A stretch of DNA of 64,000 nt from Tubulanus polymorphus (lineage: Eukaryota; Animalia; Nemertea): assembly GCF_964204645.1 (NCBI RefSeq), contig NC_134027.1, forward strand, positions 18,004,560-18,068,559, given 5' to 3'. Under the pieces are notes generated by a model. It searched no databases. It saw only the letters and a program-made list of their open reading frames with translations, and was not told where the DNA came from. Below are positions 6,198 through 44,610 of this stretch, piece by piece. Both the position numbers and the translations under genes were made by a program. Numbering within the stretch: position 1 is the stretch's first letter; the number at the start of each line of letters is the position of its first letter.

Positions 6198-6603
6198 AGA
6201 AGTTCAATGATTTATATATGTATTATTTCAATCACACTTTACTAACACTTTTAATGTTTCAAAATCTAACTCATACAAATATGAATATTGAAATAATGTT
6301 TAAAATATATCTATATATCTATTCTATAAGAGCTTACACTTTTATATTGAATAATCTATCAATTTAAATGCTATTCATATATATTTTATTCATGCATATG
6401 AATATTTTAAGAGTAATAGGGGTTTAGTTGTTCTAGGTTAAAGGTTGAATGGTTGAGAAATTTTCCAAATGTGAAATAATAATAATTTCTACTTGAATTA
6501 GGAGTGTGCGCGACTGATTCAAGTAGAAATTATTGTTATTTCACATTTGGAAAATTTCTCGACCGTTCGACCTTTGATCTAGAACAACTAAACCCCTATT
6601 ACT
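6198..6603. repeat. Terminal repeat of element A with ~190-bp terminal palindrome
   Basis: Similar to 44611-45036 and to the ends of E; 6411-6604 is self-complementary around the loop GAGTGTGCGCGA. Confidence 0.9.
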
Positions 6604-7082
6604 CAGGACTCGCGAGATTTTCAACAACACGGAAGTAACGTGTAATAAATGATGACTTGAATTGCATGACTACCTACCACCCCTCATAATTGTTGGGAAA
6701 CTAAACGTTCGGCACTGACTAAAAATTAGTAATAACATTTTTGAAATGGCCAATGGTATAATTTTTTTTTTTTTAACGGCCGTTAAGGCTTCATGTTTCG
6801 TCTGCAATTCACTGCAAATAGTTACGCAACTACGCAGATTTCAGTGTTTTTGGCAGCTGTACACTCAATCGGCACCGTTCGTGACTAGCTTCACTGCGGA
6901 ATTATCATTAATTAACATCGTCATATCACATCATCAACTTATATTGTGCCTTAAAACCCTAACAGCCGAAATAATTGAAATGCACACACGATTTCTATCA
7001 TTGAAAATTGAGAGAGTGGTCATGTTTGTGTTTGCTGCTTCGCATAAATCCCGCGCGGTGGCGCAACCGCGCGGAGTGGGGC

Positions 7083-7902: not shown

Positions 7903-8232
7903 AGTAATAGGAAAAGTAGGCTTTCATAACAGAGGTCGAGACACCACTCATCACAGCTAGGCCGAGAACGGTCAACAGCGTTGTGATACACAATACAGTG
8001 AGTGCGCGTAACAACAGCTGCGCGTGGATAGATCGATACATCGAGGTGCTACCGAGAACGGTTATTAACGTGTGTGCTATTACTGTAGTACAGTGATTGT
8101 GTGTCAGCTGTGCTCGGATAAATAGATGCTGTGAGGCTTGGGTTAGAACGGTAAATAGCGTGCTTGTTATATACAAGGGGAAGTAATCCCCACTCATCAC
8201 CACAAGTAATTTTTTCCCTTATAAATGGGAGA
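7903..8232 (+). repeat. Left TIR of element B
   Basis: Near-identical reverse complement of 22363-22700. Confidence 0.95.
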
Positions 8233-8550
8233 TAGAAAAGCATTCTTAGCAACAATAAATAACAGAATAAAACCAGCTAAAAAACAATTTGAAATAAAAA
8301 AGTTAGTTGATGTTACAAAAGAAATTGAACATAAAATATTGAAATTAGAAAAGATAAAAACTAAATATGGAGAGAAAGTATCAGCTAATTTAAGCTACTG
8401 TAATGTTAGTACATCGCGAGAATTTAAAGTATTTTTACCTGATAAATGGGCTTCATTGAGTACAGAGGAATTAAAAGATTTATAAGGATTTAAAATAATC
8501 TATCATGGAAAAAATGAAGATGGCCATCATGATTTAGAAATTGTTGATTA
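8225..8550 (+). pseudogene. Small Maverick protein (LPDKW...GKNEDGHH family)
   Basis: Similar to the disrupted ORF at 40150-40507 (LPDRF...GKNEKGHH); premature stop. Confidence 0.55.
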
Positions 8551-8702
8551 AATTTAAAAAAAAATAAATTAATAAAAATAATGAATATCTAGAATCCGAA
8601 ATGACTTATCTGGACAATTTAATTGCTCCACATAGATAGACAAAAGTAGTGAGATATTTAATTGATTAAAAATGAAATTATTTTTTGCTTTTTTCTAAAA
8701 TA

Positions 8703-9059
8703 TTAATCCATTTTTTTTATTGTCAATTTTGGAATTTCAGAAGTATTTTCATTTTTAATATCAATAGTTTCAGAATTATTAATATCGTAAATTTTAGTTG
8801 ATTTCTTATACCAACTACACCCAATCAAAATGAATACAATTACAAATCCAGTTGCAAAATATAGATATTTATCAAATATTCTATTATTAGAAGGAGTATT
8901 TTCACCATTTTTATTAACATTTTTATCACTTATTTTTTCTATTACAGCTTTTTTATATTCTTGTGATTTAATTCCTAATTGCCGAGACCATTCAATTTGT
9001 TTCTGAGTTCTCGGTTTTTTCTTCAGAGTTAATTCCTTCACTTCTTCCCCTTCGCTCAT
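8703..9059 (-). CDS. Small single-TM Maverick protein
   Basis: KKPRTQKQIEW motif shared with 30446 and 54338; one hydrophobic segment. Confidence 0.7.
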   Translation of the reverse strand: MSEGEEVKELTLKKKPRTQKQIEWSRQLGIKSQEYKKAVIEKISDKNVNKNGENTPSNNRIFDKYLYFATGFVIVFILIGCSWYKKSTKIYDINNSETIDIKNENTSEIPKLTIKKMD

Positions 9060-9599
9060 TTATTATAGAAAATTTTTTACTTTCAATATTTGAAAATGTT
9101 ATAACTCCAGTTGATAATAATGTCATAAATCCACCTAATTGAAATGATAAATATCCAATCCATTTATTTAATTCAGTCATAACTAAATAATCATTTTTTA
9201 AATCAGCATATAATCTATTTTCATCTTGAATTGGCAGCATATTATTACATAATTTACAATAACCTTTTACTACATTATCTGATATCGCGTCATTAATTCT
9301 AGCTGTTCTCGCGGTTTCATAAATCTTAAATAATCTAATAATTTCATCTGATTTCATTGTATCTAATTCATTATAAGTTAAATTTTTACCGATAAAATTT
9401 TTACATTTTCCAGATGCTATTAATATTTCTGATGTTGATGTTTACAATAAAGATAATATTCATAATTATTATTTGTTGTAACATTATTTAAAGTACCATC
9501 ATCTGGAGTTAATTTTGTTTCTTTTATTCCAAAATCATCTAAAGTTTTTTCAATTGGAACATCGCCATTTTTAGATTTTATTTTCTTTTCACCTCCCAT
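8992..9599 (-). pseudogene. Conserved Maverick hypothetical protein (frameshifted)
   Basis: ARINDAISD...LKNDYLVMTEL, homologous to 3476-4048. Confidence 0.7.
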
Positions 9600-9904
9600 T
9601 TATATAACAAAAAAATTAGTTGTGATGTTGCAACTAGAATTTAACTAGAATGTAACTAAAAATCAACTAGATTAACAAACTAGTTGAATTATTATTGTTT
9701 TTATTTATTTCTTGTTAAATCTAGTTGATTTTTGTTCCAACTACCAATGACTAGAATTCAACTAGAATGTAACTAAAAATATACTAGATTAACAAGCTAG
9801 TTAAAATATTGTTGAATTTTATTTGATATTCATTTCAAATACCAATAACTAGAATTCAACTAGAATGTAACTAAATATGTAATAGATTAATAAGCTAGTT
9901 GAAT

Positions 9905-10497
9905 TTAAGTAAATTCATATTTAAATGGGTGTTGTAATCTGAATAGCAATTTTGATCTTTTATTATTTTTCAATTCATCCATATATTCATTATGTAAATC
10001 ATGTGGAATAATATCATTTTCCTCAAGTGCATTTTTCATCGATTTTCTATCTTTATTGTAGAATAAAACTAGAAATCTAATGTTTTCTCTAAAATCTTTA
10101 ACAATTGAATTATATTTTTGATTTAAAACCCAAGTTGTTATCCCAAAATGTCTACCAGAAAAAGCTAAATAACATAACTCACTCTCTAATTTTTGAATCA
10201 TGTAAATTTGCACAATCATCTATAATGAATAATGTATTTGATCCTTTATAAATATCAATTGCTATTTTTATACAATTATCTAAATTTTCTTTTACTGTTT
10301 TAGGATCTAATATAATTAATTTATTATTAATCATAAGTTTGATTAAATTCATATGTTGGACAAAATAATACTATATTATCAAAATAGTTTTTATAAATAG
10401 TTTCTAATAAATTTAATATAAAATAAATTTTTCCACAATTTGTTACGCCAGAAATTAACATATTATGAGGCTCAAATATAAATAATTCCTTATTCAT
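9905..10497 (-). pseudogene. Packaging ATPase of element B (disrupted)
   Basis: GVTNCGK Walker A near 10430-10450; FSGRHFGITTW. Confidence 0.85.
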
Positions 10498-11625
10498 TTA
10501 TATATTTTTAATTTTACTTGATAATATCCATTCATTAAATTTATCTGGCCAACCAATCCATTTTACTAAAGAATATTTTTTTATTTTAACAGTTTTTGTT
10601 TTTAGTACTTTTTCAATTTTATATTTTTGTTCTAGATTTTCAATAGTTAAACTTAATTCTTCTTCATAAAAATACCCATCAACTTCTTCACCATCTAAAT
10701 CTTCTAATTTATAGACATATGGTTTTGTTGTTATTACTTTTTTTATTTGATATATTTCTCTAGTAAAATTACGATCGTATCCTTTATCAAATATCTTTTT
10801 ATATTTAGAAATTTTAACATTTTGACCAACTTTAAATTTAGGTTCACCAAAATCATCTACAAGAAATGCCCCATACAAATTATTCCAAACAATTTCAGCA
10901 TTTTCAGGTTTTCTAGCATCAATAGGTTTCATTTCAAAAGAAGAATGATAAGAATTGTTATAACCATTTATCAATTTTGGTAAAACATCAATCCATTTAT
11001 AAGTATTATTTGCTGTGAAATATTTTGACATTCTTGTTCTCAATGTTCTATTAAATCGTTCAACAACTGCTGCTTTTTTATCCGATTTTGTTGAAAAATA
11101 TTTAATATTATGAAAATCTAAGAGTCCATGAACCAATGAATTATCAAATTCTTTTCCATCATCAAATTGAATTTTTTCTGGTTTTAGTTTACCACCTGAA
11201 AGAAATGTTCTTAAAACATTTGATGTTTGTACAGCATCTTTTCTATAAAGTGGGAAGCTCCATACATAACGACTAAAAATATCAATTATATTCAATATCC
11301 ACCAATAATCAAAATTATCTTTTTAAAGATTTTTTATATCAATTAAATCTCCTTGCCACTGTTGATCTACATAACTTACCATAGTTTTACGAGTTTTATA
11401 TTTTCTAACAATTTTTTTATGCGTTGTATATCTCGGTTGTTCTAACATAAATTCATTTATATCTTTATATTTAACTAAATTTTGTGGGATTATCTTATCT
11501 AATTTATCTTGTTTTACTTGACGCCATATATTTTTGGTAGAAGAATAAGCAACCGAACTCTCAGGGTTGTAATATAAATTTCTTAAATATTGTTCTTTAG
11601 TATTAGGAGTTTTTTTACCGCCCAT
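10498..11625 (-). pseudogene. DDE integrase with chromodomain, element B (one interruption)
   Basis: WQGDLID, QFDDGKEF and VERFNRT; chromodomain LVKWIGWPDKFNEW. Confidence 0.9.
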
Positions 11626-11646
11626 TTATATATAACTCCCACTCAT

Positions 11647-13107
11647 TTATTTAACAAAAAAATTAATTTTTTTATTTTTTATCATATTCACTAACCCAAA
11701 AATAATTGTACTTACAACTGTAATTAAAAATAAAATAATATCTTCAGCAGCAAAGTTAAGAATGTTCCCAGCAGATTTCAATATAAAACCAACAATTGAT
11801 GCAATAATTCCTGGTAAAGCTGCAGCAGATTTTTTAGATAGTTCCCATAAATATTTTGCTAATTTTTTTAAACCATCCTTAACTTTATCTTGTAAAGAAT
11901 TATTATCATTTGGGGTTTTATCCGGTTTATTGGGAGTACGAGTAGATTTCAGTGAATTTGATATAGCTAAACCAATTGTTGTAAATAACATAGTTACAGC
12001 TGTTAGAATTGAAAGAATTGTCATACCTTCTAGTTTAAATAATAATTTTATTCTATCTTTTAATGATATTTTAGAATCTGGTTTTATTATTAACTCTTTG
12101 AAAATAACTTTTAATCTATTGATATTATAATCATGTGATTTTAATAATAATTTAATTTCTTCTTTCTGTAATTCTATGTTATATTCTAAATCATCTTTTT
12201 CTTTTTCTAAATACGCATTTCTTTTTTTAAATTCAATTTCTTCAATAACTTTATTATCTCTATCTAATTTTAATTGTTCTATTTCTTTTATTTTATCAGT
12301 TCTATCTTTTTCCAAAGTTCTAATTTTAAAATCTCTTATACTTTTATCATGTGCAATTTTATCAGATGCAAGTCCTATACTAATAATTTCTCTAATTGCT
12401 TTATCTGAAAATATATTTAAATCTTCTAATTCTTGATCTGTTGCATCAAATAATCCATTCGGTAAAAATTTTTCAATTGGTACTTTATTTGATTTAAGTT
12501 TACTAGTTTTGGAAGTTATATTCTGTTCAGAAGTTGTTTCTGTTTCTGTTTTCTTTTTGATTATTTCAAATAATTCATTAATTCTTTGTTTAAATACGTC
12601 TATATCATTATCAGTTAATTCTTGTTTTATAACATCAGTTATTACATTACTATTACTAATTCTTTTAATTCTATCTGGATCTAAATCACTCAAAGTTGAT
12701 TTTGTTAATATTTTATTTTTATTATTTTTATAAGTGATATCAATATAATAATCACCTTTCAAATGATAATACCATTTACCATTATCTAAAAATTTTAATT
12801 GATCTGCTATATAAGGTCCAACGTCTTCATCATTTATGTTAAGTTTAGAATTTTCAATTATACGTTCTAATTTAGGTATTTTGTTTAAATTATCTAAATC
12901 TTGTTTTACCAAATCTGGGTCTAAATTTTCAGGATTTAATTGTGATTCTGCATTTTTAATATAATCAGGCATATTTAAATTATTATTATATTCTGGCTCA
13001 TTGCCGTCATTAAAACTTGTTTCACTAAAATCAGGCGGTTGTTCTTCAGTTATGCCGGGTTCATCAAAAGTATCCATTCCAATATCTTCTCCACCTTCTA
13101 AATCCAT
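11647..13107 (-). CDS. Coiled-coil protein with C-terminal hydrophobic helices
   Basis: 486 aa ORF; the C-terminal ~140 aa are nearly identical to 35086-35508. Confidence 0.75.
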   Translation of the reverse strand: MDLEGGEDIGMDTFDEPGITEEQPPDFSETSFNDGNEPEYNNNLNMPDYIKNAESQLNPENLDPDLVKQDLDNLNKIPKLERIIENSKLNINDEDVGPYIADQLKFLDNGKWYYHLKGDYYIDITYKNNKNKILTKSTLSDLDPDRIKRISNSNVITDVIKQELTDNDIDVFKQRINELFEIIKKKTETETTSEQNITSKTSKLKSNKVPIEKFLPNGLFDATDQELEDLNIFSDKAIREIISIGLASDKIAHDKSIRDFKIRTLEKDRTDKIKEIEQLKLDRDNKVIEEIEFKKRNAYLEKEKDDLEYNIELQKEEIKLLLKSHDYNINRLKVIFKELIIKPDSKISLKDRIKLLFKLEGMTILSILTAVTMLFTTIGLAISNSLKSTRTPNKPDKTPNDNNSLQDKVKDGLKKLAKYLWELSKKSAAALPGIIASIVGFILKSAGNILNFAAEDIILFLITVVSTIIFGLVNMIKNKKINFFVK

Positions 13108-13123
13108 TTATATAATAAAAAAA

Positions 13124-14518
13124 TTAAAATTTAAAATATAATATTCCTCCTATAACAATTCCTATACAAGTTATAGCTAATTTAGCATTTTCATGGGATT
13201 TATTATCATCATTTCGTTTAATTATTTCATGTTGAATATCACCGTGTGGGCGCCGCACGGCACCATTTTCTGTAGTATTATAATCCGGTTTAGAATCATT
13301 ATTTAATTTAATATTCTTAGTTTTAGTTTCTGTTGATTGAATATGTTTTTTAATTTTTTCACCTTCCATTAATTTTGGAGCAGTAATAATCTTTTTTATT
13401 TATATCATTTAATCCAAATTAATTATTTATTGTTGCAGTTTTAATTAGATTATTATAACCAATTATATTTCCCATCTTTAATACTAAATCATTAGAAATA
13501 ATAAATAGATTAGGGCCTATACAATAATTGAATCTAATATGTGATTTATCTAAATTATTTTGATATCTTGCAATGTTTTCTGGAATCGATCTATTTTTAT
13601 CATTATGAATGGAATCTTCAAATAAAACTTTAAATTGTTTTTGTGTATCAAATGATGTATTTAAATTTCCAATTATTGGGGATCTTGTTTCAACTTGCGC
13701 ACCTAAAATACATATCAAATAAATTCTAATAGATTGACTTATTCTTTGTATACCAGCTTTAGTAAAACCTTCGCTATTTTCTAAAATGAAATAAACCCCA
13801 CCATTATTATTTTCTTGTTTTAAATTATCATAGAATTTCGGTAATTTATTGAAATTTAGTGTTTCTAAATCCTTTTTTCTATTTTACCATAACCTAATTT
13901 ATTATTATAGATATTATAAAAAGTATTAGATGGTATGGGAAGTGTACAATATGCTGCAACATTTTCGGGGCAAGGAAATGATCTTATTGTTCCAATTTTT
14001 GTTCTAAAATCAGAATTATTTATATCTATATTAAATTCATTACAAATTTTATAAAACTTTGATAAATTTATGTTATTATCTAATTCTTTAAAACATCTAG
14101 ATCCTGGTAAAGGCTCTAATTCATTTATTATTAATCTTATTTGAAAGTATGTATGAAATCTAAATAAACTTTGAATTAATTTATATTTAGAATTATTCAA
14201 ATGATCATTCCAACTAATTCCACACCCTGTTGTTGCGCAATAAACAGCAAAATTTAATTGGTTCTGCCAATATTTTATATTAGATTTTAATAACCATTGT
14301 TTTTCATCTTTCAATTTTTTAAAATTAATTAAATATACATGAAATATATTTTCCATCTTTGCATTAAAATTACTAGTTTCAGTAACATAAATATCTAAAT
14401 TAATTAATGAATTTAAAACTTCATTTCTATATGAAATATCTTTATTAAAATCTATTGCAGGAATATTATATTTAATTGATTTATTATATTGGAAAGCTTT
14501 TGGAAAACTATCTACCAT
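13124..14518 (-). pseudogene. Conserved Maverick protein (YWQNQLNFAVYCATTGCG family), fragmented
   Basis: Three collinear ORF pieces homologous to 36584-37874 and 59760-60641. Confidence 0.7.
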
Positions 14519-14713
14519 TTATATAATAAAAAAATTAATAATTTATTAATTCTTTTAATAATTTTCAGGTTTTCTAGAATCAATAGGTTTCATTTCAAAA
14601 GAAGAATGATAAGAATTGTTATAACCATTTATTAATTTTGGTAAAACATCAATCCATTTATAAGTATTATTTGCTGTGAAATATTTTGACATTCTTGTTC
14701 TCAATGTTCTCAT

Positions 14714-14935
14714 TTATATAGGATGAAAATATCTTTGTTTTTCCAAATAATCAATAGTTAAATTAGATAAAGTAACTGCTAACGTTAATTTTAAGATATC
14801 ATTTATATCAAATCTATCAACATTAACACTTACCATTTTAAATACTTTTTTTAATACCATTGAATAACCAACAGTTCCAACTGATAGTAAGGCTCCATTA
14901 CATAAACCAGTTATTATCCACTTATTATCACTCAT
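14714..14935 (-). CDS. Small hydrophobic Maverick protein
   Basis: Homologs at ~38787-39014 and ~62460-62696. Confidence 0.6.
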   Translation of the reverse strand: MSDNKWIITGLCNGALLSVGTVGYSMVLKKVFKMVSVNVDRFDINDILKLTLAVTLSNLTIDYLEKQRYFHPI

Positions 14936-14938
14936 TTA

Positions 14939-15292
14939 TTAATCAAAAAAATTACTATCATCAAAATATTTAGTTATCTTAGTGATGATTAATTCAACAT
15001 TTATAATATTATTAGTTTCATTTTCATATATTTCAGTTATCATTTTTTTAATATCATCGATGATAAAATCTTCATCTAATTCATAAAATCTTAAAGATTC
15101 TCTAATTAAATTATTAATCTTTTCTACATTAAAAGTTTCTTTATCTATTGTTTTTTCATACTCAAATGTTAGTTCATTAGAAAATGCAATATTTTTAATA
15201 TGTGTAATTACATCAGTAATATCAAATTTCATTTCTTTCTCACGTTTAAAATCAAATCCAAAACATATGCTCGGTCCAACAGTTATATTCAT
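14939..15292 (-). CDS. Maverick hypothetical protein (MNITVGPS family)
   Basis: Homologs at 39015-39371 and 62705-63040. Confidence 0.7.
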   Translation of the reverse strand: MNITVGPSICFGFDFKREKEMKFDITDVITHIKNIAFSNELTFEYEKTIDKETFNVEKINNLIRESLRFYELDEDFIIDDIKKMITEIYENETNNIINVELIITKITKYFDDSNFFD

Positions 15293-15308
15293 TTATATAA
15301 CAAAAAAA

Positions 15309-16094
15309 TTACTCTTTACATCTTATAACTAATTCATAAATTACAGGAAAGTTATTCAAATCAATTAAGTAACCATTGTGATTTCTTATTTCTAACTTAT
15401 AATTTTTAAATCGTGAAATACAAGGTTTAAAATCACATTCTGTTAAATTATAATTTATTTGCGTTCCAAATTGTTTAACATTTTTTAATGGTAAAATATT
15501 CAATATACTAGAATTACGAGTTATATCTTTAGTTGCTTCAAATGTCTTTGTAGGATCAATTTAATTACAATAAATATAAAAGTGTGTAAAAGGCATTATA
15601 TTTGATCTACCTTCTGTGCTTGCTCTAATAATCATTTTATCTGGAGGAATTCCTAACAGTTAAGCTAAGGGTTTTTTAACCACGAAAGCAAATTTTTTTA
15701 TCCCTAAATCATTTTTAATTTCATCATTTAACTTTATTTTAATTTTATTAGAACTCTCACTTTTTATGAATTTAATATTAAATTTGGAATCACCTCTAAT
15801 TTGTATTCGTGCTTTTCTATTAATTTCTTGAGCTAATGTTTCTAAATTATATAATCCTGGTGTTAGCATAAGTTAAACCCATTTATGATTATTCTTATTA
15901 AAAATTAAAAAGGCTCTATGTTCATCAGTTTTATCTGATACATTATAAAAAGAGTTACATAAACTTATATTTACTAATTTCAAATCTACACAATTTTTAA
16001 ATTCTCTATCTAATTGTACTAATAAATTATGTGATTTATCATTTGTAAGTCTTCTAGAATCAACAAATATTCTATATTCTTTTAATTCTACCAT
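15309..16094 (-). pseudogene. Minor capsid (penton-like) protein, fragmented
   Basis: Homolog of 39388-40146. Confidence 0.65.
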
Positions 16095-16158
16095 TATTTA
16101 TAACATAAAAAAATTACCGCTCATCACTAAAAATTTTAATAAAATTTTTCCTTAATGA

Positions 16159-17187
16159 ATGGATGAGAAGATAGGATGTGAAATTTGTGGTGAACTTCTA
16201 AGAAAAAGTAATATGGCTCGACATATGAAAAAACATGATGAAAATTATAAACCCCCTAAACTAAACTGCCAAAATTGTAATAAATTATTCTCAAGAAATT
16301 ATGTTAAAAAACATTCAGAGAAGTGTAAAGTTAATGGCGCAACGGCTAATGTTGATAGTAATGAAAGTAATAGTATTTCTGTTGAAGTTGAACCTGAAGT
16401 TATTTGGAAAAGACCTTTCTTATTCTATGATAAGAATAATATGAAAGATCATTTCTGCGAGCCTTGTCGAATAAAATATAGTCCTGAAAATATAGAAGCT
16501 TGGGAGAATCATCAATTTCGCAAAATACATATAGATAAAATTTCTAATAAATTTGAAACTGAATTCAATGAAAGAAAAAATAAAATATTAGAAAAAATAA
16601 AATATGAGAAAACGTTGCCTGATAATGAAGAAACACTTAAAAAGTTGGAAAAACAATATAATGAATTATTACGAAAAACATATTATTGTGAATATTGTAA
16701 ATTGATTATTACAACAAGTAATTCAAATCTACATAATAAAACAATAAAACATAAAGAAAACGTAAGTAAATACCAAGAGCTTAATGAAGATCTATTACCA
16801 AGAAATTATAAACAAAAATGCCCACAATATATCTATGCGACCTTAAGACAAGAAGGTACTGTGATATTTTGTGTTGTATGTGGATGGCAAAGGAATTTAT
16901 GGGGTGAAGAAAAAACTAGAGATTTTCTCATAGAACCAAAATTAAATTATCTCGATGAAATTTTTAAAATATTTTCTATAGAAGATCATACACCAGAATA
17001 TATGCAATGGCTTGAAAAAATGAAAATGGTAGAAAATAAAAATGGTGAAATAACTCAAAAAGATATTATAAAAAGAATTATTCCATCAACATTTAACACA
17101 AAACAAAAGAAAATGTATTTATATTTATTATCTAACGATTATTATGAAAAACCTAAATTAACAGAAGAAGATATGGAAAATATATAA
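16159..17187 (+). CDS. Multi-zinc-finger protein
   Basis: CEIC...HMKKH, CQNC...HSEKC, CEPC...H..H and CEYC...H..H motifs; intact 342 aa; only in element B. Confidence 0.75.
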   Translation: MDEKIGCEICGELLRKSNMARHMKKHDENYKPPKLNCQNCNKLFSRNYVKKHSEKCKVNGATANVDSNESNSISVEVEPEVIWKRPFLFYDKNNMKDHFCEPCRIKYSPENIEAWENHQFRKIHIDKISNKFETEFNERKNKILEKIKYEKTLPDNEETLKKLEKQYNELLRKTYYCEYCKLIITTSNSNLHNKTIKHKENVSKYQELNEDLLPRNYKQKCPQYIYATLRQEGTVIFCVVCGWQRNLWGEEKTRDFLIEPKLNYLDEIFKIFSIEDHTPEYMQWLEKMKMVENKNGEITQKDIIKRIIPSTFNTKQKKMYLYLLSNDYYEKPKLTEEDMENI

Positions 17188-17483
17188 AAAAAACATTCAA
17201 ACAAATATTAGTATATCATTTGGAAAATAGAATAACAGATTCAATTAATTATGAATTCTTTTTAAATAAGATTGTTAACTATTTAAACATCGATATAATT
17301 CCATTTGATGAATTAACAAACAAAAAGAAACAAAGAGAGCGAGATGAAATGAGGTACAATATATCACATTTTTTAAATGAGAAAAAATGAAATGGAAGAA
17401 CCTAAACAAATTATACAAAAACAATTAAATGAAAAAGAAGAAACCAGTAGCGATTTCGAGTATGATGATATTGATTTTCTGTT

Positions 17484-20400
17484 TTAATAACCATAAGGTA
17501 ATGTTTTTATACCATCATCTAAAATATGCCTTTTATCATCAAATGGATTCAAACTAGTTTTTTCAACTTCATTAATGTACATCTCGTGATTTTCTGATCT
17601 TAAACAATTCATTTTATGTTTCATTACAATTGAGTTATATAAACACTTTATATAATCTTGAAATTCTCTATGTTTATCAACCACATGTTTTGTTATTCCT
17701 TTTAACTTTTTTGCTTCATGATCTTTTGTTCCGTAACTATACATTTTACTTCTTATCCCAACAAATTCAATCATTTCATCACCCCCTAATTCATCTTTAA
17801 ATTTACCAGGAATCTTTTTATTATCATTGCTAAATAGTTCATGATCTTTGGGATAATTGCTAAAATCAAAATGATGTTTCAATGTTTTAAAGTCTTTTGT
17901 TATGTAATTTGTCTTGATTTTTAGTATGTACGCATCAGTATTGAAGCAACTTAATGGAAATCCACAGTTGAATGTGCCATCTTCAGTTGAGTTTGGTTTA
18001 GATTTAATCAATCCAATATTCATATTAAAACCTAATGAATTACATAATATATTCAATCCTGATATAGCAACTTTTCCGTTCTGTGCAAAGGTTATCTTTT
18101 TATCCTTTGTAAATTTTGTAGCACCATCTGCTGCGTAGAATCTAATGAAGAACCATTTTCTTAAATTATATTTTGCCTTTAATGCATAATCTGGAACTAT
18201 CTTTTCTTTAGTTGAAGTATTACTTTTCACTATTGCATGAATATAGAATTCATCATTATATTTAATTGCAAAATCTTTAGGGTTATTCACAAGTATTCTA
18301 TAAACTGCCGTTGATTTCATATGATCCACGATTCTAAATGTTTTATGTGAATAAACTTCTTCGCAGAATTTCTTAATTCTTTCTAATAATTTCAAGTCTT
18401 GATTGCATAAATACCAACAATATTTATTACACCAAACATGATTATACACACCTGCCGAACCATCTCCCATGAAAAATCCTTTGATAAAATATTCTTTTTC
18501 ATCTAATGTTTCGGGTTCTATATTATAAATATTATCAATTATTTCATCAAATGACATATGATTCATTCTTTTGAAAAATCTTTTATGTAATAATTCGTCT
18601 CCAATTTTCATATCAGTTGGTTTTATTTCATCACCATTTCGTTTAATTAAACTATGATCTTCTGTAACATCTACAAACCCTAATTTAGTTCTAACTCTAT
18701 AGATTTTCTTATTTGTTTTATGCCTAATAATATTCTTTAATTTTTCCATCCATTTCTTGTCCAAACATCCATTAAACCATTTATTTGTATTAATTCTTTT
18801 TCACCATAAGAAATATAACGTTCATTTTGCTTTGGAATTATTTCTGAAATTCTTCTAATTAATATTTGGTTATTGTATTTTAATAATATTGGGGTGTCTG
18901 CAGTAACAGAATCAAAATATAATATTTCAATATGCTTTTCCCCAAAAAGTGGTTGTAAAACATTATAATAAAAATCATACATTAATAATTTTGATAACTT
19001 CTAAAACAGTTGAACCAATGAATATAGGTTTATTAAATTTCATTGACGTTCTTTTTAATTTAACTGCTGTTAAATAATCTTCAAATCTTTTATTTCCTAA
19101 ATGTCTAGGGCTTGATTGTAAATGTATATTTTACTAATTCAATATCATTTCTATTTCTAATATTTTCACATGTTTTACCATAAAAACTATTATTCATTAA
19201 TTTAAAAGAATCTTTTTCGAAATCTGTTTTAGATATTGTTCTCCGTTGAGTATTAAAATCTATATATTTTTCTAACCACTTCGATTTATTAAATTCAATA
19301 TATCTATGTACTTTCTTTAATTTCATTCCTTGTTTTAGATAAAATTTTAACATTCTATAATGAACAATATAATTGTATTTATTATTTTGAGTAAGTATTA
19401 ATTTTTCTGTAAAAACGTGATCTTTCGGTTTTATTTTCTTCTGGTATTCACTTAAATAACTATCATCTACGGCTAAATGTTCTGGGCAATATGGCAAGTT
19501 TCTTGTTTTAAACTTTATATTTTCGGGATATTCTAAATCAACTACAAAGAAATAACCAATTGGTGCTTCATCTTTTAAACTCGTAATTGCGCTTTCCCAA
19601 TCAGTTTTATCATCATTTTCAACTTCTGTTAATATAAAATTTTTGTATGGTTGAGGTTGCATCATTGCCCAACCATATAAATTATTGGCGTCAATATATA
19701 ATAATTTATATTCATCATTTGCTTTAAAATATCTATCTCCCATAACACCACTAATTCCACCTCTAATTGATTTTTCAAATAATAAAACCATGTCTGGTTC
19801 TTTTAATAAATCTAATTCTACATTTGTATATTTTAAACCACATTGCCCGGTTAAACCAGGACTAGAGAAGCAATAATAAGGATCAACATTAAAATGATTC
19901 AAATTAATTTCTCTAAATTTTTCAAATATATCAGCCAATATCATAACATCTGATTTTAAATATAAATCAACTAATTCACCATGATTTTTCATCTTAAAAT
20001 GGTTCCAAATATTTAATGTAGTATTAAACACTTCATCTTTCACATCTTTTAATTGATCATAAAATTGATCTTTTAATTATTCTGTTACATTAAAATCATT
20101 GTGTGTTTTATAAAATGAATAAGGAATTGCACCTTTATATCTCAATAATTTAAAATCTTGTTCATTTGGATAATAATATCGAGTTATAACAAAATCATTA
20201 TCAACTAAACTTTTTGCTAAATTATCTAATGAACTATTTAAAAATCTATAAGAATCTAAAAATCTAATGCAACCAAATTGAAATGAAATATAATTTTCAG
20301 ATGTCTTAGCTAATAGTTTAAAATCATATTCTCTTACATTTACACCATTCATAGCATTATATTCTTCTATTTCTTGATTAATTGCGCCCAATTTTCCCAA

Positions 20401-22370
20401 TAATTGTTTTATAAATAGATGGGTATCATAGCCTGATAAATTATGAAATAATATTGGTACGAAATTAACTTTCTTAGCTTGTAAATTACAATCTTCATGA
20501 GCAGCTCCACGATATTTTGAATTTAAATGATCATGATCTCTAACTTTTTTATCAAATGAATAAAAACGTTTTTCACAATAACAACAATGAGTTGCATAAT
20601 TAAAATCAATTTCATCTTCTTTTGTCATAACTATTCTTTTATTTTTGTTTAATAATTCTGCAAAATCACTTTCTAATTCAGTTATTTTATTACAAAAATC
20701 ATTAACTACATTTTCACCTCTAAAAGAAATATATTGACTTTCATATAATTGGGGATAATTTGATTTCATGTAAATTCCATAAGCAGCAGCTCTTTGATGA
20801 ACTTTTTTAATTGTGTTTATGATTGGTGGGTCTTGAATTATATCTTCATTTAGTTCATTTCCTTTATCCATTGATTTTAAAAATTGCATTTTGTTATACA
20901 TTTCTTTTCTATCTTGGTCAGTTAATTCTTTATTCAACGATTCAAAATCCCCATGAATTACAAATGGAACGATATTTTTAAATTAATGATTAGTAAATTT
21001 CAATTTATAATCTTTTTCTGTTGGCATTATTAATTTCCAAAAATCTTCATTATCTATCTTTATTATTCTTTATGTTTTAATAATGTATTCTCAGTCGTAA
21101 ATTTAGATAAACATTTTCTACATAGATAAATTTTATTATGGTGATCACTTTCTGTTCTAAAGAATAAATCAATTTGTTTTAGCCACATATAATGTTCATT
21201 TTCATCTTTTTTGTAATATAACAAATCTATAACATTTTCATCATCATAATATTCTGTTAAATATAAAGCTTCCAATGTATAATCTTTAATATTTTCGCCT
21301 TTTGTCTTTGGTAATTGCATTAATTCAAATACATTTATTTTTAAATTATTAACTTTTTCTATTTTAGGAATCATTTTTATAGTTACTGGATATTGATCAA
21401 TTTCATATAATGTTTCATATTTCCGGTAATTTGTTATTCTAAAACTATGCGTAATATCTTCTGTTGGGTGTAAACAACTTATAATCGACTACAGAAAACA
21501 TTTATTATCTTCATTTTGAACTTTTATAATTGTTTTTATATCATTTTTAAACATTTTATTACTTTTTGATGTTTTATTTCTTTTTGTATTATAAACATTT
21601 AAATCTAAATATATAATTTCATTTGATGATAAGCCAGAACCTTCGAAATATCTTTCTTCATTAAGACGTTTAAATTCATTAAATATTTTTTCTAACTTCT
21701 CTTTTATTTGTGTTTTTGAAATTATTTCTTCAGAGTGTGTTTGAATATTATAATCCATTTTATCTTCTGACTTTATAAAACTTACTTTCCCAGAGATACT
21801 AATTTTTGGATATTCAACATCTGTTATCAAATCTAGTATTTTTTCTATTATTTCATTAAATTTACTATAATCTTCTATTGTTGTGCCTTTAAAAAATCTA
21901 AATATAATAGCCGCAGGACGAATTTTACTATGTAATGTTTCTAAAATTTCAATTGTATCTTTTATTTCTAGTTATTCGATATAATTTCTAACATTTTCCA
22001 TGTAAGGTTTATTTGAAATGGATTTAGTTTTTGAAGTTGATTTTTTTCCTTGTTGAGGTTTATCATCGATTCCTAAAACATTATTACTCAAATTTTGATG
22101 GTGTTTTTGTGATTTGATATGTCTTTTATAATTCCTTTTTACTATAAATTCATTACAAACTTCACATTTTATTTCATCCACATTCATATCATCTAATCGT
22201 TCTTATCTTTCATTGGAATTTTCTGGAGTTTCAAGATCTATAACATTTTTTATATGATTTGCAGATTTTTCATGACGCGATTTTTGAGATTTATCAATGT
22301 ATTTTTTATAATATTGACAACAATATTGATTTTCATTAACATCAATTTGTTCTGTCTTATTCTCTCCCAT
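17484..22370 (-). pseudogene. Protein-primed family B DNA polymerase with intein (frameshifted)
   Basis: HNLSGYD exonuclease motif, YIDANNLYG, KLMNNSFYGK, YFD^TDA, GKFKDE; endonuclease VII-like RDHDHLN..YRGAAH..CN insert. Confidence 0.93.
17940..18910 (-). mobile_element. Intein with LAGLIDADG homing endonuclease in PolB motif C
   Basis: Starts SVTADTPILL directly after YFD; block B VTEDHSL; LAGLIDADG-like FIKGFFMGDGS and FFIRFYAADGA; ends STEDGTFNCGFPLSCFN followed by +1 Thr (TDAY). Absent from element C PolB (LYCDTDSY). Confidence 0.9.
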
Positions 22371-22700
22371 TTATAAGGGAAAAAATTAATTGTGGTGATG
22401 AGTGGGGATTACTTTCCCTTGTATATAACAAGCACGATATTTACCGTTCTCACCCAAGCCTCACAGCATCTATTTATCCGAGCACAGCTGACACGCAATC
22501 ACTGTACTACAGTAATAGCACACACGTTAATAACCGTTCTCGGTAGCACCTCGATGTATCGATCTATCCACGCGCAGCTATTGTTACGCGCACTCAATGT
22601 ATTGTGTATCACAACGCTGTTGACCGTTCTCGGCCTAGCTGTGATGAGTGGTGTCTCGACCTCTCGACCTCTGGTATGAAAGCCTACTTTTCCTAATACT
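22363..22700 (-). repeat. Right TIR of element B
   Basis: Reverse complement of 7903-8232 with an 8-bp duplication. Confidence 0.95.
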
Positions 22701-23416
22701 TATATCTCAATTTATAGCGCATCTGTTTCTGTCAGGTTACAGCAGTCCCTCTATTTTTTCATACATTTCAGCAATAAGCTTTTACCATAAATCGGCTCGC
22801 CTACCTGAGTAATAGGGGTTTAGTTGTTTCATACCAAAGGTCAAGAGGTCGAGCTCGTAAAAAATGAAAATAACAATAATTTCCAGTTGAATTAGTCGCG
22901 CACACTCCTAATTCAACTAGAAATGAACATAATTTACATGAATTTCATATATTTTAAAATCATTTATATGTTAATTACAAAAGTGTGAGTAAAGTGTGAG
23001 TAATAATTCATATTTTAACTGATTTCGAGTAAAAATATAAATAAAATAAATGGATAACTAAAAGAGTATTAAATTAACGAGTAATTAACGAGCTCTTATA
23101 GAATAGATAGATAGATATATTTTAAACATATTTCAATATTTTTATTTGTATGAGTTAGATTTTTAAACATAAAAAGTGTGAGTAAAGTGTGAGTGAAATA
23201 ATTCATATTTAAAACAGTGAATATTTATATTTATATGTGTTAAATTCTTATTTTCAGTATAAAAGTAACGAGTAATTAACGAGTGAAATAATTCATATTT
23301 AAAACAGTGAATATTTATATTTATATGTGTTAAATTATTGATTTTTAATATAAAAAGTAACGAGTAATCAACGAGTGAAATAATTCATATTTAAAACATT
23401 GAATATTTATATTTAA

Positions 23417-24067
23417 ATGAGTTTTAATGAAAGTTTTGTTATTAAAATGAAGAAAGAAGAAGAAGAACCCAACTTTAAAATCGAAATCAATGAAACCAAT
23501 AAATCATTTTCACAGTTTAACATTAAAAATTATATTTCAGCAACAAATTTAGTGTCCGCAAGGTATTATGAAATTGATAACATTACTATGATTAATCAAT
23601 TATCATCAAATGAAACGTATTTAATTACTGAACTTATTGATACTTTTGATAATGGAATAAAAAATCCTAAAATATTCAATACAGTTTTAAATTTTAAAGG
23701 AACTTTAGATGAAAACATAATTAATATTCTTAAAATTCCTTTGAATGAAAGAAATGATGATATAATACTTTCAAAAGATTATAATGATTTGATTAACTTA
23801 AGAATTGAAAGAAGACAATTATATTATTTCAATTTTGATAATAAACAAATTATCTATAATGAAAATTCATCAAATATTGGAATTCAATGTGAATTAGATA
23901 ATGAAAAATCATTTAAAGATATTGCAGTTCAATGTTATTTAGATGATGAATTTAGAAAATTCAATCCTAATGAAAAAGTGCATTGTTATTGCGGAGGTAA
24001 ATATTTAAAATCACATAAATCAAAGCATTATGAAACAATTAAACATAAAAACTGGCGTAAAGAGTAA
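23417..24067 (+). CDS. Hypothetical protein with C-terminal zinc finger
   Basis: HCYCGGKY...HKSKHYETIKH; its 5' 85 codons are duplicated in the right TIR (25930-26190). Confidence 0.65.
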   Translation: MSFNESFVIKMKKEEEEPNFKIEINETNKSFSQFNIKNYISATNLVSARYYEIDNITMINQLSSNETYLITELIDTFDNGIKNPKIFNTVLNFKGTLDENIINILKIPLNERNDDIILSKDYNDLINLRIERRQLYYFNFDNKQIIYNENSSNIGIQCELDNEKSFKDIAVQCYLDDEFRKFNPNEKVHCYCGGKYLKSHKSKHYETIKHKNWRKE

Positions 24068-24118
24068 CAATTCTACATTATAATTATTGAATTGAGTTAA
24101 ATGATTTAAATATCTGAT

Positions 24119-24722
24119 AGACTGTTAAAATGATAAATTGTTTGACAGTTGAAATGATAAATTGTTTGACAGTTGAAATGATGAATTGTTTGACAGTTGA
24201 AATGATAAATTGTTTGACAGTTGAAATGATAAATTGTTTGGCAGTTGAAATGATAAATTGTTTGACAGTTGAAATAATAAATTTTTTGACAGTTGAAATG
24301 ATAAATTGTTTGACAGTTGAAATGATAAATTGTTTGACAGTTGAAATGATAAATTGTTTGACAGTTGATATGATAAATTGTTTGACAGTTGAAATGTTAA
24401 ATTGTTTGACTGTTAAAATGTTAAATTGTTCGACTGTTAAAATAATAAATTGTTTGGCGGTTGAAATGATAAATTGTTTGACAGTTGAAATGTTAAATTG
24501 TTTGACTGTTAAAATGTTAAATTGTTCGACTGTTAAAATGTTAAATTGTTTGGCGGTTGAAATGATAAATTGTTTGACAGTTGAAATGTTAAATTGTTTG
24601 ACTGTTAAAATGTTAAATTGTTCGACTGTTGAAATGTTAAATTGTTAGACTGTTGAAATGTTAAATTGTTTGACTGTTGAAATATTAAATTGTTAGACTG
24701 TTGAAATGTTAAATTGTTTGGT
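24119..24722. repeat. 24-bp minisatellite, about 25 copies
   Basis: Unit ATGATAAATTGTTTGACAGTTGAA, drifting to ATGTTAAATTGTTCGACTGTT(A/G)AA. Confidence 0.95.
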
Positions 24723-25110
24723 TGTAAATTTAATTGTTATTTGATTTAATCATTTAAAAGTTTAATATTTTTAAAATGATTATAAAATATTTAATTAAAA
24801 ACTAGCAAATATTTTATAAACTGTTTAATTTCTTTCTTAAATAAATGGATGGTTTCATCCCAACTGGGAAAAGTGATTTGAAACATTATTTAGTAGCAGG
24901 AGGATTAATATTGGCTGCGCTTTTCTTTTATTATGAAAATATCAGTAAGGATTTGATTAATGAAATTATAAAATTGAGCAAGAAATGAAAGAAGTAAAAT
25001 GGACACAACCACAGAAAAAATAACAATAAAAAAGTTAATGATTTAAATGATTTGGAGGATTAAAACAGCATCTTTGAATGCAATTTATTCTATATATTTT
25101 GACTATAAAA

Positions 25111-25416
25111 ATGAGTGAAAATAAGGTATTAGAAATATTACATCTAATATATAAAAATCAACAGAATATTAAATCAATTATTATGATTTCAGGTTTATTT
25201 TCATTCTCAGTTTATACTATAAAACAGTTGTTAGAATTCTATGATTGCTGTAAAATTAGATACACTGAATTAATAGAAAATATGAATTATATTTCAGATA
25301 GATTGAATAATATCAAATGCTGTGAAATATGCAATAAAAGATATAAAAATAAAAAATCATTAAGGAATCAGATGTATCTTCACGAACTTGATGAAACATT
25401 ATATGAATCAAAATAA
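25111..25416 (+). CDS. Small protein with degenerate C2H2 finger
   Basis: CEICNKRYKNKKSLRNQMYLH. Confidence 0.45.
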   Translation: MSENKVLEILHLIYKNQQNIKSIIMISGLFSFSVYTIKQLLEFYDCCKIRYTELIENMNYISDRLNNIKCCEICNKRYKNKKSLRNQMYLHELDETLYESK

Positions 25417-25800
25417 GAAATCGACTGTTAAATTAGCTGAAAATATAAAATATATTAGTTGAAATGTATGAAAATGAGTAAATTATATTTATGTTAAAAA
25501 AGGAGGGTTGAGGTATCAATGTATTAAATATGTATTAAATACGTATCAAATACGTATTAATGGTATTAAATACATATTATGCTTTATTTCTGAAAATGAA
25601 GTAACAGAAGTAATTTATGTTTTAATTCATTCAAGTATGATATTGTAAATTCTTTACATTTGACTAGGATAATACAAGAGCGATATTAGTTAGTTGGCTT
25701 ATTCAATAAGAGAAACAATGAAATAATACAAGAGTGATACTAACAGTTAAAGTTATTTAATTTCTTGTTAAATCTATTTGAATTCTAGTCAAGTCTTGTT

Positions 25801-25930
25801 AACCAATAGCGTGAATAGAAATCAAAAAGATTTAAATAAAAAAACAATAAGTTACTTTATCTAATACTAACTTATTTAACTTATTGTTTTTTTATTTAAA
25901 TCTTTTTGATTTCTATTCACGCTATTGGTT
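25801..25930. repeat. Perfect 54-bp-arm inverted repeat
   Basis: 25801-25854 is the exact reverse complement of 25877-25930. Confidence 0.95.
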
Positions 25931-27406
25931 TACAAGAATTTAGGATTTTTGATTCCATTATCAAAAGTATCAATTAGTTCAGTAATTAAATATGTTTCAT
26001 TTGATGATATTTGATTAATCACAGTAATGTTATCAATTTTATAATACCTTGCGGACACTAAATTTGTTGCTGAAATATAATTTTTAATGTTAAACTGTGA
26101 AAACGATTTATTGGTTTCATTGATTTCGATTTTAAAGTTAGGTTCTTCTTCTTTCTTCATTTTAATTACAAAACTTTTATTAAAACTCATTCAAAGATAA
26201 ATATTCAATGTTTTAAATATGAATTATTTCACTCGTTAATTACTCGTCACTTTTATACTGAAAATAAGAATTTAACACATTTAAATATAAATATTCACTG
26301 TTTTAAATATGAATTATTTCACTCACACTTTTTATGTTTAAAAATCTAACTCATACAAATATAAATATTGAAATATGTTTAAAATATATCTATCTATCTA
26401 TTCTATAAGAGCTCGTTAATTACTCGTTATTTTTATACTCTTTTAGTTATCCATTTATTTAACTTATATTTTTACTCGAAATCTGTTAAAATATGAATTA
26501 TTACTCACACTTTTGTAATTAACATATAAATGATTTTAAAATATATGAAATTCATGTAAATTATGTTCATTTCTAGTTGAACTCGGAGTGTGCGCGACTA
26601 ATTCAACTGGAAATTATTGTTATTTTCATTTTTTACAAGCTCGACCTCTGGACCTTTGGTATGAAACAACTAAACCCCTATTACTTACCTGACCCCACTG
26701 CATCTTTCTTTATAAGAAAACTCCTAAAAGGCGTCGCAAATTCCATCCCGAGCAGCCCTGACGCCCGTTTACCCATTACAATAGATATTTTGACTCGGTT
26801 GGTTGCCGCGATACCCGTCGTAATGGGCGAGGGCTTCGACGGTATCTTGCTCAAGTCTAGGTTCGTCTTGTGTTTTCATGCATTTTTGCGGGTCGGCGAG
26901 ATATCGGTTAAGTCTAGTGGCCATGCGACTAAGGTATTACATAAACATCAGGTCACCTTGTTCCATGGTCCTAATTCAACGCCGATGTTACGCGTCTGCA
27001 GCACGGACTACAAGCATAGCGATTTGATACCAAAACCATTGCTGTTGCCAAAGCATTCAAACCCATCCGTTTGTCTGGTCACAATTATATCTCATTACCT
27101 CCATGTGAGCAAGCATACGTCCGGTCCATTTTTTCAATTTCGAGATGGTGCAGCTGTATCGTATGTTTTTTTTGCAAAATCGCTAAAAAGTTGATATCAT
27201 TTCTCGGCCTGCCAGCTATACATCGCATAGATTTCGGATTGGCGCCGCAACCAATGCCGCAACGAACGGGGTCCCCGAGCCAGTCATTCGAGAGTTAGGA
27301 CGATGCAATTCAGACGCTTTCAAACGATACATTAGAATCAGTCCGGCCGGGACGGGACAGCACTAATGACGCATTGACGCAATTTTAAATGTTAAACTTT
27401 AATTTT

Positions 27407-30805: not shown

Positions 30806-30811
30806 AAGAAG

Positions 30812-31882
30812 ATGAAAAAAGAACAATATTTAAGAGAGTCATATTATAACCCAGAGAGTGAAGTATCATATTCTAACGTTACAGAATTATGGGGTAAAAT
30901 TAATTCTGATAATGAAAATGGTAATATAAAATATAGTGAATTGAAATCATGGTTACAAAATCAACCAACATATCAAATCCACAAGAAAATGGATAAAACT
31001 TATTTAACAAGAAAAGTTATGGTTTCATATATCGATCAACAATGGCAAGTAGATTTAATTGACATGAAGAACTTAGAAGAATACAACAGAGGATATTTCT
31101 GGATATTGAATGTTATAGACATATTCAGTAGATACGCATGGTCAATTCCAATCAAAAATAAAACTGGTATAGAAGTGACAAATGCTTTTAAATCAATATT
31201 TAAAGAAGCTATTCCAGATAAGATACAATTTGATGAAGGTAAAGAATTTTATAATAAAAATTTAAAAAAACTATTATCTGATAACGATGTAGATTATTTT
31301 TCAACACACTCAGATAAGAAAGCATCTGTTATAGAAAGATTTAATAAAACATTGAAAACTGCTAATGAAACATATAAATATATCGATGTATTAGATTATT
31401 TAGTGAAAGGTTATAATAATTCTAAACATAGTTCTATAAATATGAAACCTATACAAGCTAGAAAAGAAGATAATTCAGAAATAGTTTGGAATAATTTATA
31501 TGGCGCATTTGTTACACATGATTTCGGAGAACCTAGATTCAAAATTGGACAACACGTTAGAATATCTAAATATAGAAAAACATTTTATAAAGGTTATACC
31601 CCTAATTTTACAGAAGAAATATTCAAGATTATAAAGATAATATTAACTTACCCATTTGTTTATAAACTAGAAGATCTAAAAGATGAAGAAATATTAGGTT
31701 ATTTCTATGAACAAGAATTATCACTTGTACCAAACCCAGATGAAATAGAATACAAAATAGAAAAAGTATTGAAATCAAAAATTCTTAAAGGAAAAAAGTA
31801 TTCTTTGGTGAAATATAAAGGATATGATGATAAATTTAATGAATGGATTTTATCTAGTAAAATTAAAAAAATAAATGAATAA
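30812..31882 (+). CDS. Retroviral-like DDE integrase with chromodomain
   Basis: WQVDL, QFDEGKEF and IERFN catalytic motifs; 7-aa in-frame deletion (RMWKYFT) relative to A and D. Confidence 0.92.
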   Translation: MKKEQYLRESYYNPESEVSYSNVTELWGKINSDNENGNIKYSELKSWLQNQPTYQIHKKMDKTYLTRKVMVSYIDQQWQVDLIDMKNLEEYNRGYFWILNVIDIFSRYAWSIPIKNKTGIEVTNAFKSIFKEAIPDKIQFDEGKEFYNKNLKKLLSDNDVDYFSTHSDKKASVIERFNKTLKTANETYKYIDVLDYLVKGYNNSKHSSINMKPIQARKEDNSEIVWNNLYGAFVTHDFGEPRFKIGQHVRISKYRKTFYKGYTPNFTEEIFKIIKIILTYPFVYKLEDLKDEEILGYFYEQELSLVPNPDEIEYKIEKVLKSKILKGKKYSLVKYKGYDDKFNEWILSSKIKKINE

Positions 31883-43500: not shown

Positions 43501-44577
43501 TATATTATTATCTCTTTCTATTTTTGGGATGTTTTTAATTATAACAGGATACTTATCTATCTTATAAATTTTTTCAAATGGTTTATAATGAGTTAATCTA
43601 AAACTATGTGTAATATCTTCTGTTGGATGTAAACAACTTATAATTGTCCATAGAAAACCTTTATCATCTTCATTTTGTACATTTATAACAGCATTAGTTT
43701 TGAATGGTAGTTTAATATAACTTGATGCTTCAATATCTGGTTCTTTATAATATGATACATTATTTTCATCAATTGGTTTTGATTTAGTTAACTTATTATA
43801 TTTTGTGTTATAAACATGTAAAGTCATAAATATTATTTCATCAAATATTAAACCAGATCCTTCAAAATATTTCTCTTCTATTTTAGTTTTTACTTCATTA
43901 TAACATTTATCTAATTTATCATCTATATGTTGTTTATATATAATATGTTGTGAATGAGAATTTATATTATATATTGGTTTATCTTCAAATTTTATGAATT
44001 TAACTTTAGAAGATATACTTATTTTAGGGTATTCAACATCAGTAATTATTTTTATTATTTCTTTCATATTTTCTAAATGTTTTTTATTTTCTTCTAATGT
44101 TTTTCCTTTATGAAATTTAAACTCAATAGCTGCTGGGCCAATATCACTTTTAAATGCTTCGGTTATCTCTATATCTTTTTTATTATCTAATGAATTAATA
44201 TAATTTCTTACATCTTCCATGTATGGTCTTTTATTGTTTAATTTATTTTTTATGCTTTTAATTGTCTTCTGTTTCTTATCATTATCTTTATCAAAATAAT
44301 CTTCACCTCAAATATCATTATTCTTATTTCTAATATGACTTTTAGATTTTAAATGTTCTTTATAATATCTTTTATCACTGAATGATTGATTACATGTATC
44401 ACATTTGTATGTTTCTTTTTCATTCTTTAATTCATCTAATTTAGTTTCTAATATATCATCTTCATATTCTAATTTCAATTTATTCTCTATATGTGTTTTA
44501 GTTTTATTGTGTCTTGCTTTTTGGGATTTATCTATATTGATATTACATGTTGGACAGTAGTAATTATTTGCTTCCAT
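40526..44577 (-). pseudogene. Protein-primed family B DNA polymerase (intein-free, fragmented)
   Basis: N-terminal zinc fingers, IYGDFES, HSLSGYD, YIDANNLYG, KLMNNAFYGK, LYCDTDSY (~41055-41080) and GKFKDE. Confidence 0.93.
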
Positions 44578-44610
44578 TATAATACTAAATTTTTTTTTTT
44601 AATTGATTTT

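Follow-up and report, generated by a model that had tools for sequence, protein, structure and literature searches.

Strand-biased fold-back hairpins at the ends of Polintons from the nemertean Tubulanus polymorphus and of metagenome relatives

Polinton/Maverick elements of the nemertean Tubulanus polymorphus can end in a long hairpin, whose inner arm is an inverted copy of the last ~90-125 bases and reaches precisely as far as the terminal nucleotide of the element. We conclude that this fold-back is real and conserved, that it probably has a function, and that it probably represents a variant of Polinton termini and not a new class of element. To our knowledge, the replication of a Polinton has never been observed and is modelled from gene content. 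Fold-back ends bear on how the second strand starts or how ends are repaired, and on the links among Polintons, adenoviruses and the single-stranded bidnaviruses. A conserved, strand-biased end structure that occurs with protein-priming parts also provides a direct test for single-stranded intermediates.

Polinton termini in the window

The window, the 64-kb stretch of DNA that was analysed, is a cluster of AT-rich Polinton/Maverick copies (Table 1). It contains the hallmarks of these elements: a retroviral-like integrase and a packaging ATPase, both detected with Pfam in element C; a protein-primed family B polymerase (pPolB) with predicted TP-like and vOTU domains; and, from B and E, TIRs of hundreds of base pairs with AG...CT ends and a 6-bp TSD. 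Candidate ORFs for a double jelly-roll capsid had no Pfam match. The rve integrase, A32-type ATPase, TP-like/vOTU pPolB, TIRs and 6-bp TSD are shared with the pPolB-encoding Polintons/Mavericks covered in the relevant part of PMC11161782. The difference from standard Polintons is that here the TIR ends in a 190-260-nt fold-back.

Table 1 Positions of the elements, genes and terminal structures in the window.
Feature	Position	Strand	Basis
TIR of A, about 400 bp, matching C and E ends	6203..6603	+	sequence comparison
Terminal fold-back of A, integrase-side end, 192 nt (inner arm 6412-6501, loop 6502-6513, outer arm 6514-6603)	6412..6603	+	folding and TSD-defined ends
GACC pair (6561, 6569), outer arm of A	6561..6572	+	sequence comparison
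Divergent Polinton B, TSD TATATC, ~340-bp TIRs, without long fold-back	7903..22700	.	TIR and TSD
Non-autonomous element E, TSD TACCTG, outer arm kept at both ends	22808..26685	.	TIR and TSD
Near-perfect palindrome in E, 61-bp arms, abutting inner edge of right TIR (control)	25794..25937	.	
rve integrase with chromodomain of C	30806..31882	+	Pfam rve, E 5e-9
A32-type ATPase fragment of C, after integrase	31875-32222		Pfam Pox_A32, E 2e-6
pPolB of C, inward from TIR, with stops and frameshifts; TP-like (D1), vOTU and endonuclease VII/HNH recognisable	40540..44577	-	
Terminal fold-back of C, pPolB-side end, 188 nt (inner arm 44849-44937, loop 44938-44949, outer arm 44950-45036)	44849..45036	+	folding and reads

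Both TIRs and a perfect 6-bp TSD are present in B and E, which fixes the element ends as 5'-AGT...ACT-3'; A and C each have one end visible. A matches the integrase side of C in inverted orientation (88.5% identity over 4.7 kb), so 6603 is the integrase-side end and 45036 the polymerase-side end. Two of the six termini in the window carry the long fold-back (A and C), two a core stem of ~17 bp (E) and two only an 8-nt copy of the terminus (B). B is more distant (71-74%).

Several smaller features of the cluster were also recorded. The integrase block of B (9086-11598) is inverted relative to that of C and its pPolB side is collinear with C; the pPolB region of B carries an intein/LAGLIDADG-like insert (17484-18749, weak Pfam matches). 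B has apparently inserted into retroelement-like sequence, represented by an ORF at 6746-7960 with a weak reverse-transcriptase thumb match. Tandem repeats of 24 nt lie within ORFs of E (23971-24870), A (221-508) and C (33437-33685).

The original prediction held that the last ~190 bp of A and of C each form one long hairpin around the same loop, and folding confirms this: the DNA folding energy is -85.4 kcal/mol for A (z -25.6) and -79.3 kcal/mol for C (z -21.6), with 0/200 shuffles equally stable in either case. Both hairpins have the loop GAGTGTGCGCGA, at 6502 in A and 44938 in C. In A, all 90 of 90 bp are paired, seven of them as G-T on the + strand, which is the 3'-terminal one. The mismatches of C are concentrated at arm positions 27-54, and its middle stem has five non-wobble mismatches and one bulge. 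The distal 25-26 bp are perfectly paired in A and in C, even though the sequences differ between the two elements. The predicted spans, 6411..6604 and 44848-45037, were right about the hairpins and one pair too wide: the outermost G-C pair uses one host base at the arm boundary and is absent from the metagenome relatives L021 and L019 described below. In all four long hairpins (A, C, L021 and L019) the last base of the element is also where the inner arm ends, which would leave the 3'-OH base-paired to an internal template. By computed folding and boundaries, the structure is thus a 3'-terminal fold-back able to present a paired 3'-OH, a trait of rolling hairpins.

Element E retains a stem of ~17 bp around the same loop at both ends (22879-22924 and 26569-26614), in line with the inner stem of ~16 bp first noted for it. 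B had been thought to have no such structure. It does lack the long arm, but an 8-nt inner copy of the terminus, missed earlier, is present at 22511-22518 and 8077-8084 (0.005 expected by chance). This copy lies 190 nt from the right end and 182 nt from the left end, which lacks one 8-nt motif unit, and its distance of about 190 nt is that of the inner arms of A and C. Because B and E integrated with perfect 6-bp TSDs and no long arm, the long arm is not essential for mobility. As first described, the loop has the same orientation at every end that carries it (4/4). The TIR of B contains a loop-like GAGTGCGCG in the opposite orientation.

The arms also change together. Comparing A with C, 21 of 90 arm columns group by element and none by arm or crosswise, and 16 of 78 predicted pairs are altered on both sides. 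Within an element the inner and outer arms mismatch at 7/90 columns (A) or 9/89 (C), whereas the same arm differs between A and C at 30-32 of 90. The claim that arms differ between elements and are nevertheless mirrored in the partner arm is therefore upheld by this covariation check, and the sequences support arms that are kept or regenerated together. Since the mirrored changes are many and include changes of length, we infer that one arm was copied from the other and did not arise by stepwise compensation.

Such copying could itself be without function: during protein-primed synthesis from the end, a nascent strand might recurrently fold on the core stem, copy its own 5' part to the terminus and switch back, leaving a by-product that decays. 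This would account for the exact stop at the terminal base and for the mirrored changes. It also fits E, which has the core stem without the long arm plus the near-perfect palindrome at 25794-25937, as well as the mobility of B and E without a long arm and the loss of the hairpin tip in some copies (see below). The E palindrome, which shows weak similarity to internal A and C sequence, is likely a template-switch product. We nonetheless place a functionless by-product on the unlikely side, for reasons that come from the reads and from the mismatches.

Fold-back ends in raw reads and in relatives

Raw Illumina reads from a separate study (run X6, about 12% of the run) were mapped to 43500-45400; reads wholly within the palindrome are uninformative on its orientation. 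The mapping gave 357 variant rows, 40 of them listed, and 98 joints. Depth falls from ~2465 to ~100 at 45036, and the 1405 reads with loose ends there continue into varied sequence, the pattern that many insertions should give; this supports the end position. At the outer site 45001, 2797 of 2845 reads have C, and at the inner site 44883 the T specific to the inner arm is found in 1449 of 1652 reads (about 88%). The read numbers at the two sites imply that the inner arm is present in at least about half of the matching termini, so the palindrome, whose presence in raw reads and family copies had been set as a test, is found in both. The prevalence of the inner-type letter indicates that the difference between the arms is inherited and did not arise by decay after insertion, which counts against a decaying by-product. 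Among the 15 of 98 joints listed, those linking interior DNA to 44807-44814 have 168 and 517 reads, with a short side of at most 74 letters, and reach the inner arm. An assembly artefact was considered and rejected, since the arms differ at 7-9 sites and since reads of independent origin run from interior DNA into the inner arm. A further 63 reads join 44915 to 44981, skipping the hairpin tip (44916-44980) almost symmetrically, which fits palindrome instability.

A protein-based scan of metagenome contigs returned at least four related loci (L018-L021), in two lineages among the matches listed. L021 is 82% identical to C in nucleotides over pPolB and has an uninterrupted ORF of 1363 aa. It starts at 190 with AGTAATGG, after a GC-richer flank, an end assigned by homology, without a TSD. 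Its fold-back of 257 nt is complete and stops exactly at ACT; the loop is GC-rich and unrelated, and only 10 bp of the distal stretch are perfect. Its folding energy of -69.5 kcal/mol compares with an average of -22.7 over 100 shuffles. L019 (80% nucleotide identity, intact pPolB, encoding P0001) has a partial fold-back with its own loop, as the contig starts inside the hairpin, and its inner arm ends in TATTACT. The L018 and L020 contigs stop short of an end. Among the matches listed, then, the long fold-back appears in 3/3 closer-group lineages with a visible end, with differing loops and lengths. The gene order of L019-L021 is unlike that of C: in these loci pPolB occupies the integrase-side end, and the HNH-like gene and the integrase come after it.

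The loop motif itself had 0 matches in viral_contigs and 0 in metagenome_contigs, and alignment A3 found no relatives among viral_contigs or genome_contigs. Of 17 distant IMG/VR loci (L001-L017), one, L005, has a TIR pair, without a long terminal fold-back. Palindromes occur in L002, L008, L009, L011 and L013, none of them linked to an element end. The one in L002, a viral contig, is ~190 nt long (3339-3528) and lies just upstream of a distant pPolB (39% identity); it could represent either two joined element ends or a fold-back at one terminus.

Strand bias and asymmetry of the arms

The transition mismatches between the arms are polarised. All seven in A are G-T on the outward strand (p = 0.008 against equal G-T and A-C; p = 2e-5 against the read spectrum), and the transition mismatches of C (2/2), of the E core (1) and of the L019 core (1) are likewise G-T on the 3'-terminal strand. 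L021 has three G-T and no A-C in the first 92 columns, or seven and none over the arm, where the alignment is loose near the loop. The sole A-C transition mismatch is at the right end of E. Pooled, the count is 14 G-T to 1 A-C (p = 5e-4), although some sites may share descent and are not fully independent. No such bias exists in the read spectrum of the region (A>G plus C>T at 76 places, G>A plus T>C at 82), which disfavours strand-specific deamination as the sole cause. Counting G-T against A-C in this way is applicable to any genome rich in such elements.

Folding energies point the same way in part. As DNA, the outward strand is more stable than the opposite one in A (-83.7 vs -71.3) and C (-77.6 vs -69.0); in L021 the two are equal (-69.5 vs -69.4), and the distal 50-nt duplex differs between strands by only 0.6 kcal/mol. 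In E, the two strands of the control palindrome are equally stable (-60.5 vs -59.9). These results speak against the functionless by-product, because neutral decay predicts equal numbers of G-T and A-C and a palindrome of the same cluster that is likely a template-switch product has no such polarity. The G-T bias, together with the presence of the structure in two other lineages, favours folding that is specific to the 3'-terminal strand, as the geometry of hairpin priming would require. This is the part of the proposed hairpin-primed step that held up.

Pairing that tolerates G-U would leave the same trace in RNA. An outward transcript, divergent or run-off, could form a dsRNA of ~90 bp that acts as terminator, decoy or source of small RNAs, and the RNA energies favour the outward strand in A (-143 vs -111), C (-120 vs -103) and L021 (-117 vs -103), including L021 with its nil DNA gap. 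However, the genes adjacent to the TIR point inward, the arms stop where the DNA element stops in 4/4 cases, and Rfam gave seven matches, all generic miRNA-precursor and all below the gathering score. Early T-runs in the inner arm of A would moreover stop Pol III. An RNA hairpin is therefore an improbable explanation.

A cruciform extruded from duplex DNA, marking the end for excision from the chromosome, was also proposed at the outset. A 90-bp AT-rich palindrome can extrude, and a junction-resolvase-type domain is encoded. Yet both strands of a cruciform fold, so this reading is strand-symmetric and predicts no G-T polarity; cleavage would hit the four-way junction or the loop; and B and E are mobile without the long arm. 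We give cruciform excision next to no weight.

The arms also differ in a motif. A pair of GACC copies lies at a fixed distance from the end in the outer arms of A, C (at 44994 and 45002), E, B and L021; as GG(T/G)C at positions 32 and 40 from the end, the pair is found in six of seven outer arms, the left end of B having one unit. In the inner arms of A and L019 both copies read GGTT, and in that of L021 one copy is shifted and one altered. The C inner arm keeps GGTC at position 32, where most reads have T. The pair may be a putative end-recognition site that the outer arm retains and the inner arm masks.

This fixed asymmetry bears on the idea of covalently closed flip-flop hairpin telomeres, with AAV-type terminal resolution or poxvirus-like, that replace protein priming. 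Parvoviral ITRs are alike in size and layout, and the endonuclease VII/HNH insert of pPolB could nick. Flip and flop orientations are expected of AAV-type resolution, whereas the loops point one way at 4/4 ends, albeit among integrated copies, a filtered sample in that inverted ends might fail to integrate. The 1449 of 1652 inner-type reads at 44883 are also at odds with exchange of the arms, integration uses an extended duplex ending in AGT with a 6-bp TSD, and the TP-like and vOTU domains are kept (see below). Flip-flop ends are thus very improbable, and with cruciform excision they fit worst among the readings considered.

Protein priming and a possible role for the hairpin

We modelled the unaltered N-terminal piece of the C pPolB (pLDDT 79), whose best viral matches are adintovirus and MELD-virus proteins. 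Residues 55-171, four strands and two helices, match a Y-family little-finger fold (Z 8.3, rmsd 2.9, 103 aligned), a fold related to PRD1-like TPs according to the section of PMC11161782 on these domains. Residues 181-324 match a viral OTU (Z 7.6, rmsd 3.8, 110 aligned), which gives the TP-vOTU layout of pPolB described there (PMC11161782). A Ser with flanking Gly lies between helix 2 and strand 4, the described site of the linking residue in that same account (PMC11161782), and at least 90% of the 37 aligned rows carry it. The pPolB copies in the window are broken, that of C also at the protease site. Those of L019 and L021 are uninterrupted and keep, within a single frame, the linking-Ser motif as well as the Cys and His motifs of the vOTU domain.

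Since relatives with the fold-back retain both the TP-like and the vOTU domain, the hairpin is predicted to coexist with protein priming; with the TP-like domain, the predicted linking Ser and the vOTU all retained, no substitute for protein priming is needed. A hairpin-primed step that stands in for protein priming, or makes flip-flop telomeres, is accordingly not supported.

Strand displacement that leaves a single strand is established for adenovirus and phi29 and modelled for Polintons. We tentatively favour a scheme, one we judge to fall a little short of probable, in which a single-stranded intermediate folds its 3' end back on itself and this end is then elongated, to prime synthesis or to repair the terminus, beside protein priming. 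Strand displacement or excision would yield a single strand of the element; the local stem of ~90 bp would close sooner than a panhandle spanning ~17 kb and would pair the 3'-OH with a template inside the element; and a polymerase would extend the folded end, so that a second strand is started or a trimmed end refilled. Templated copying, by fold-back of the nascent strand or by refilling of the 3' end, could make the arms alike. Selection would then keep pairing of the 3'-terminal strand, and the inner copy would be free to shed the end-recognition motif, leaving the outer arm as the sole working end. Several observations weigh against the scheme: the equal DNA energies of the two strands of L021 and its short perfect distal stretch, the mismatched and bulged middle stem of C with GGTC retained on its inner arm, and the integration of B and E without the long arm. 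In the standard Polinton model, as drawn in the Fig. 4C legend of bioRxiv 10.64898/2026.07.28.741278, opposite TIRs anneal instead. Repair of a 3' end templated by its own fold-back has been shown at TP-capped Streptomyces telomeres, in the part of PMC5449611 that deals with them.

A more elaborate form, in which a Polinton clade would combine protein priming with a rolling hairpin like that of the parvovirus left end, is rather unlikely. Here the 3' end would snap back and be extended into a dimer junction, of which only the arm with the intact motif pair would be cut, possibly by the endonuclease VII insert of the polymerase or by the integrase. At the MVM left end, the passages of PMC1185569 on this junction describe one active origin and asymmetric resolution. 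If true, the hybrid scheme would explain together why the loops all point one way, why wobble pairs mask the inner motif and why the mismatches favour one strand. The left-end hairpin of MVM and LuIII likewise folds back at the 3' terminus, contains a built-in mismatch and has a single active arm and a single orientation, again from those passages (PMC1185569), in contrast to the present case of a dsDNA integrating element with protein-priming parts. No HUH, NS1 or Rep nickase family of Pfam was detected in the 20 ORFs scanned of 50; an endonuclease VII insert is present instead.

The Streptomyces telomeres, so far as the pertinent part of PMC5449611 goes, combine TP priming with a folding 3' strand that templates its own end repair, as may be the case here. 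They have several short palindromes, an internal origin and a Tap protein, compared with one long stem and a phi29/adenovirus-type polymerase in our elements. Closer to Polintons, terminal palindromes are known from Halocafeteria seosinensis virophages (subtypes 1, 2, 5 and 6) and PLV subtype 4, and hairpin priming is an untested proposal for them in the sections of bioRxiv 10.64898/2026.07.28.741278 concerned. As here, these palindromes lie inside the TIR and adjoin the TSD. By the same sections they measure 52 nt (subtype 5) and occur preferentially without pPolB, whereas ours are 188-257 nt, imperfect and accompanied by pPolB with TP and vOTU. Strand-biased wobble and arm asymmetry, seen here, are absent from the palindrome section of that preprint.

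That preprint is the one description of terminal palindromes we found in this virus group; subscription journals, Repbase and bioRxiv supplements may hold earlier ones. The main text of the nematode Polinton paper (10.1101/2023.08.22.554363) is without "hairpin", "palindrom" or "cruciform", and the portions of PMC11296320 at hand name hairpins only for poxvirus telomeres. New, relative to these sources, are the fold-backs of two metagenome relatives with intact pPolB, one complete at 257 nt and one partial, with different loops; and the G-T skew on the 3'-terminal strand, accompanied by an outer-arm motif pair mostly altered in inner arms and by the retained TP and vOTU domains.
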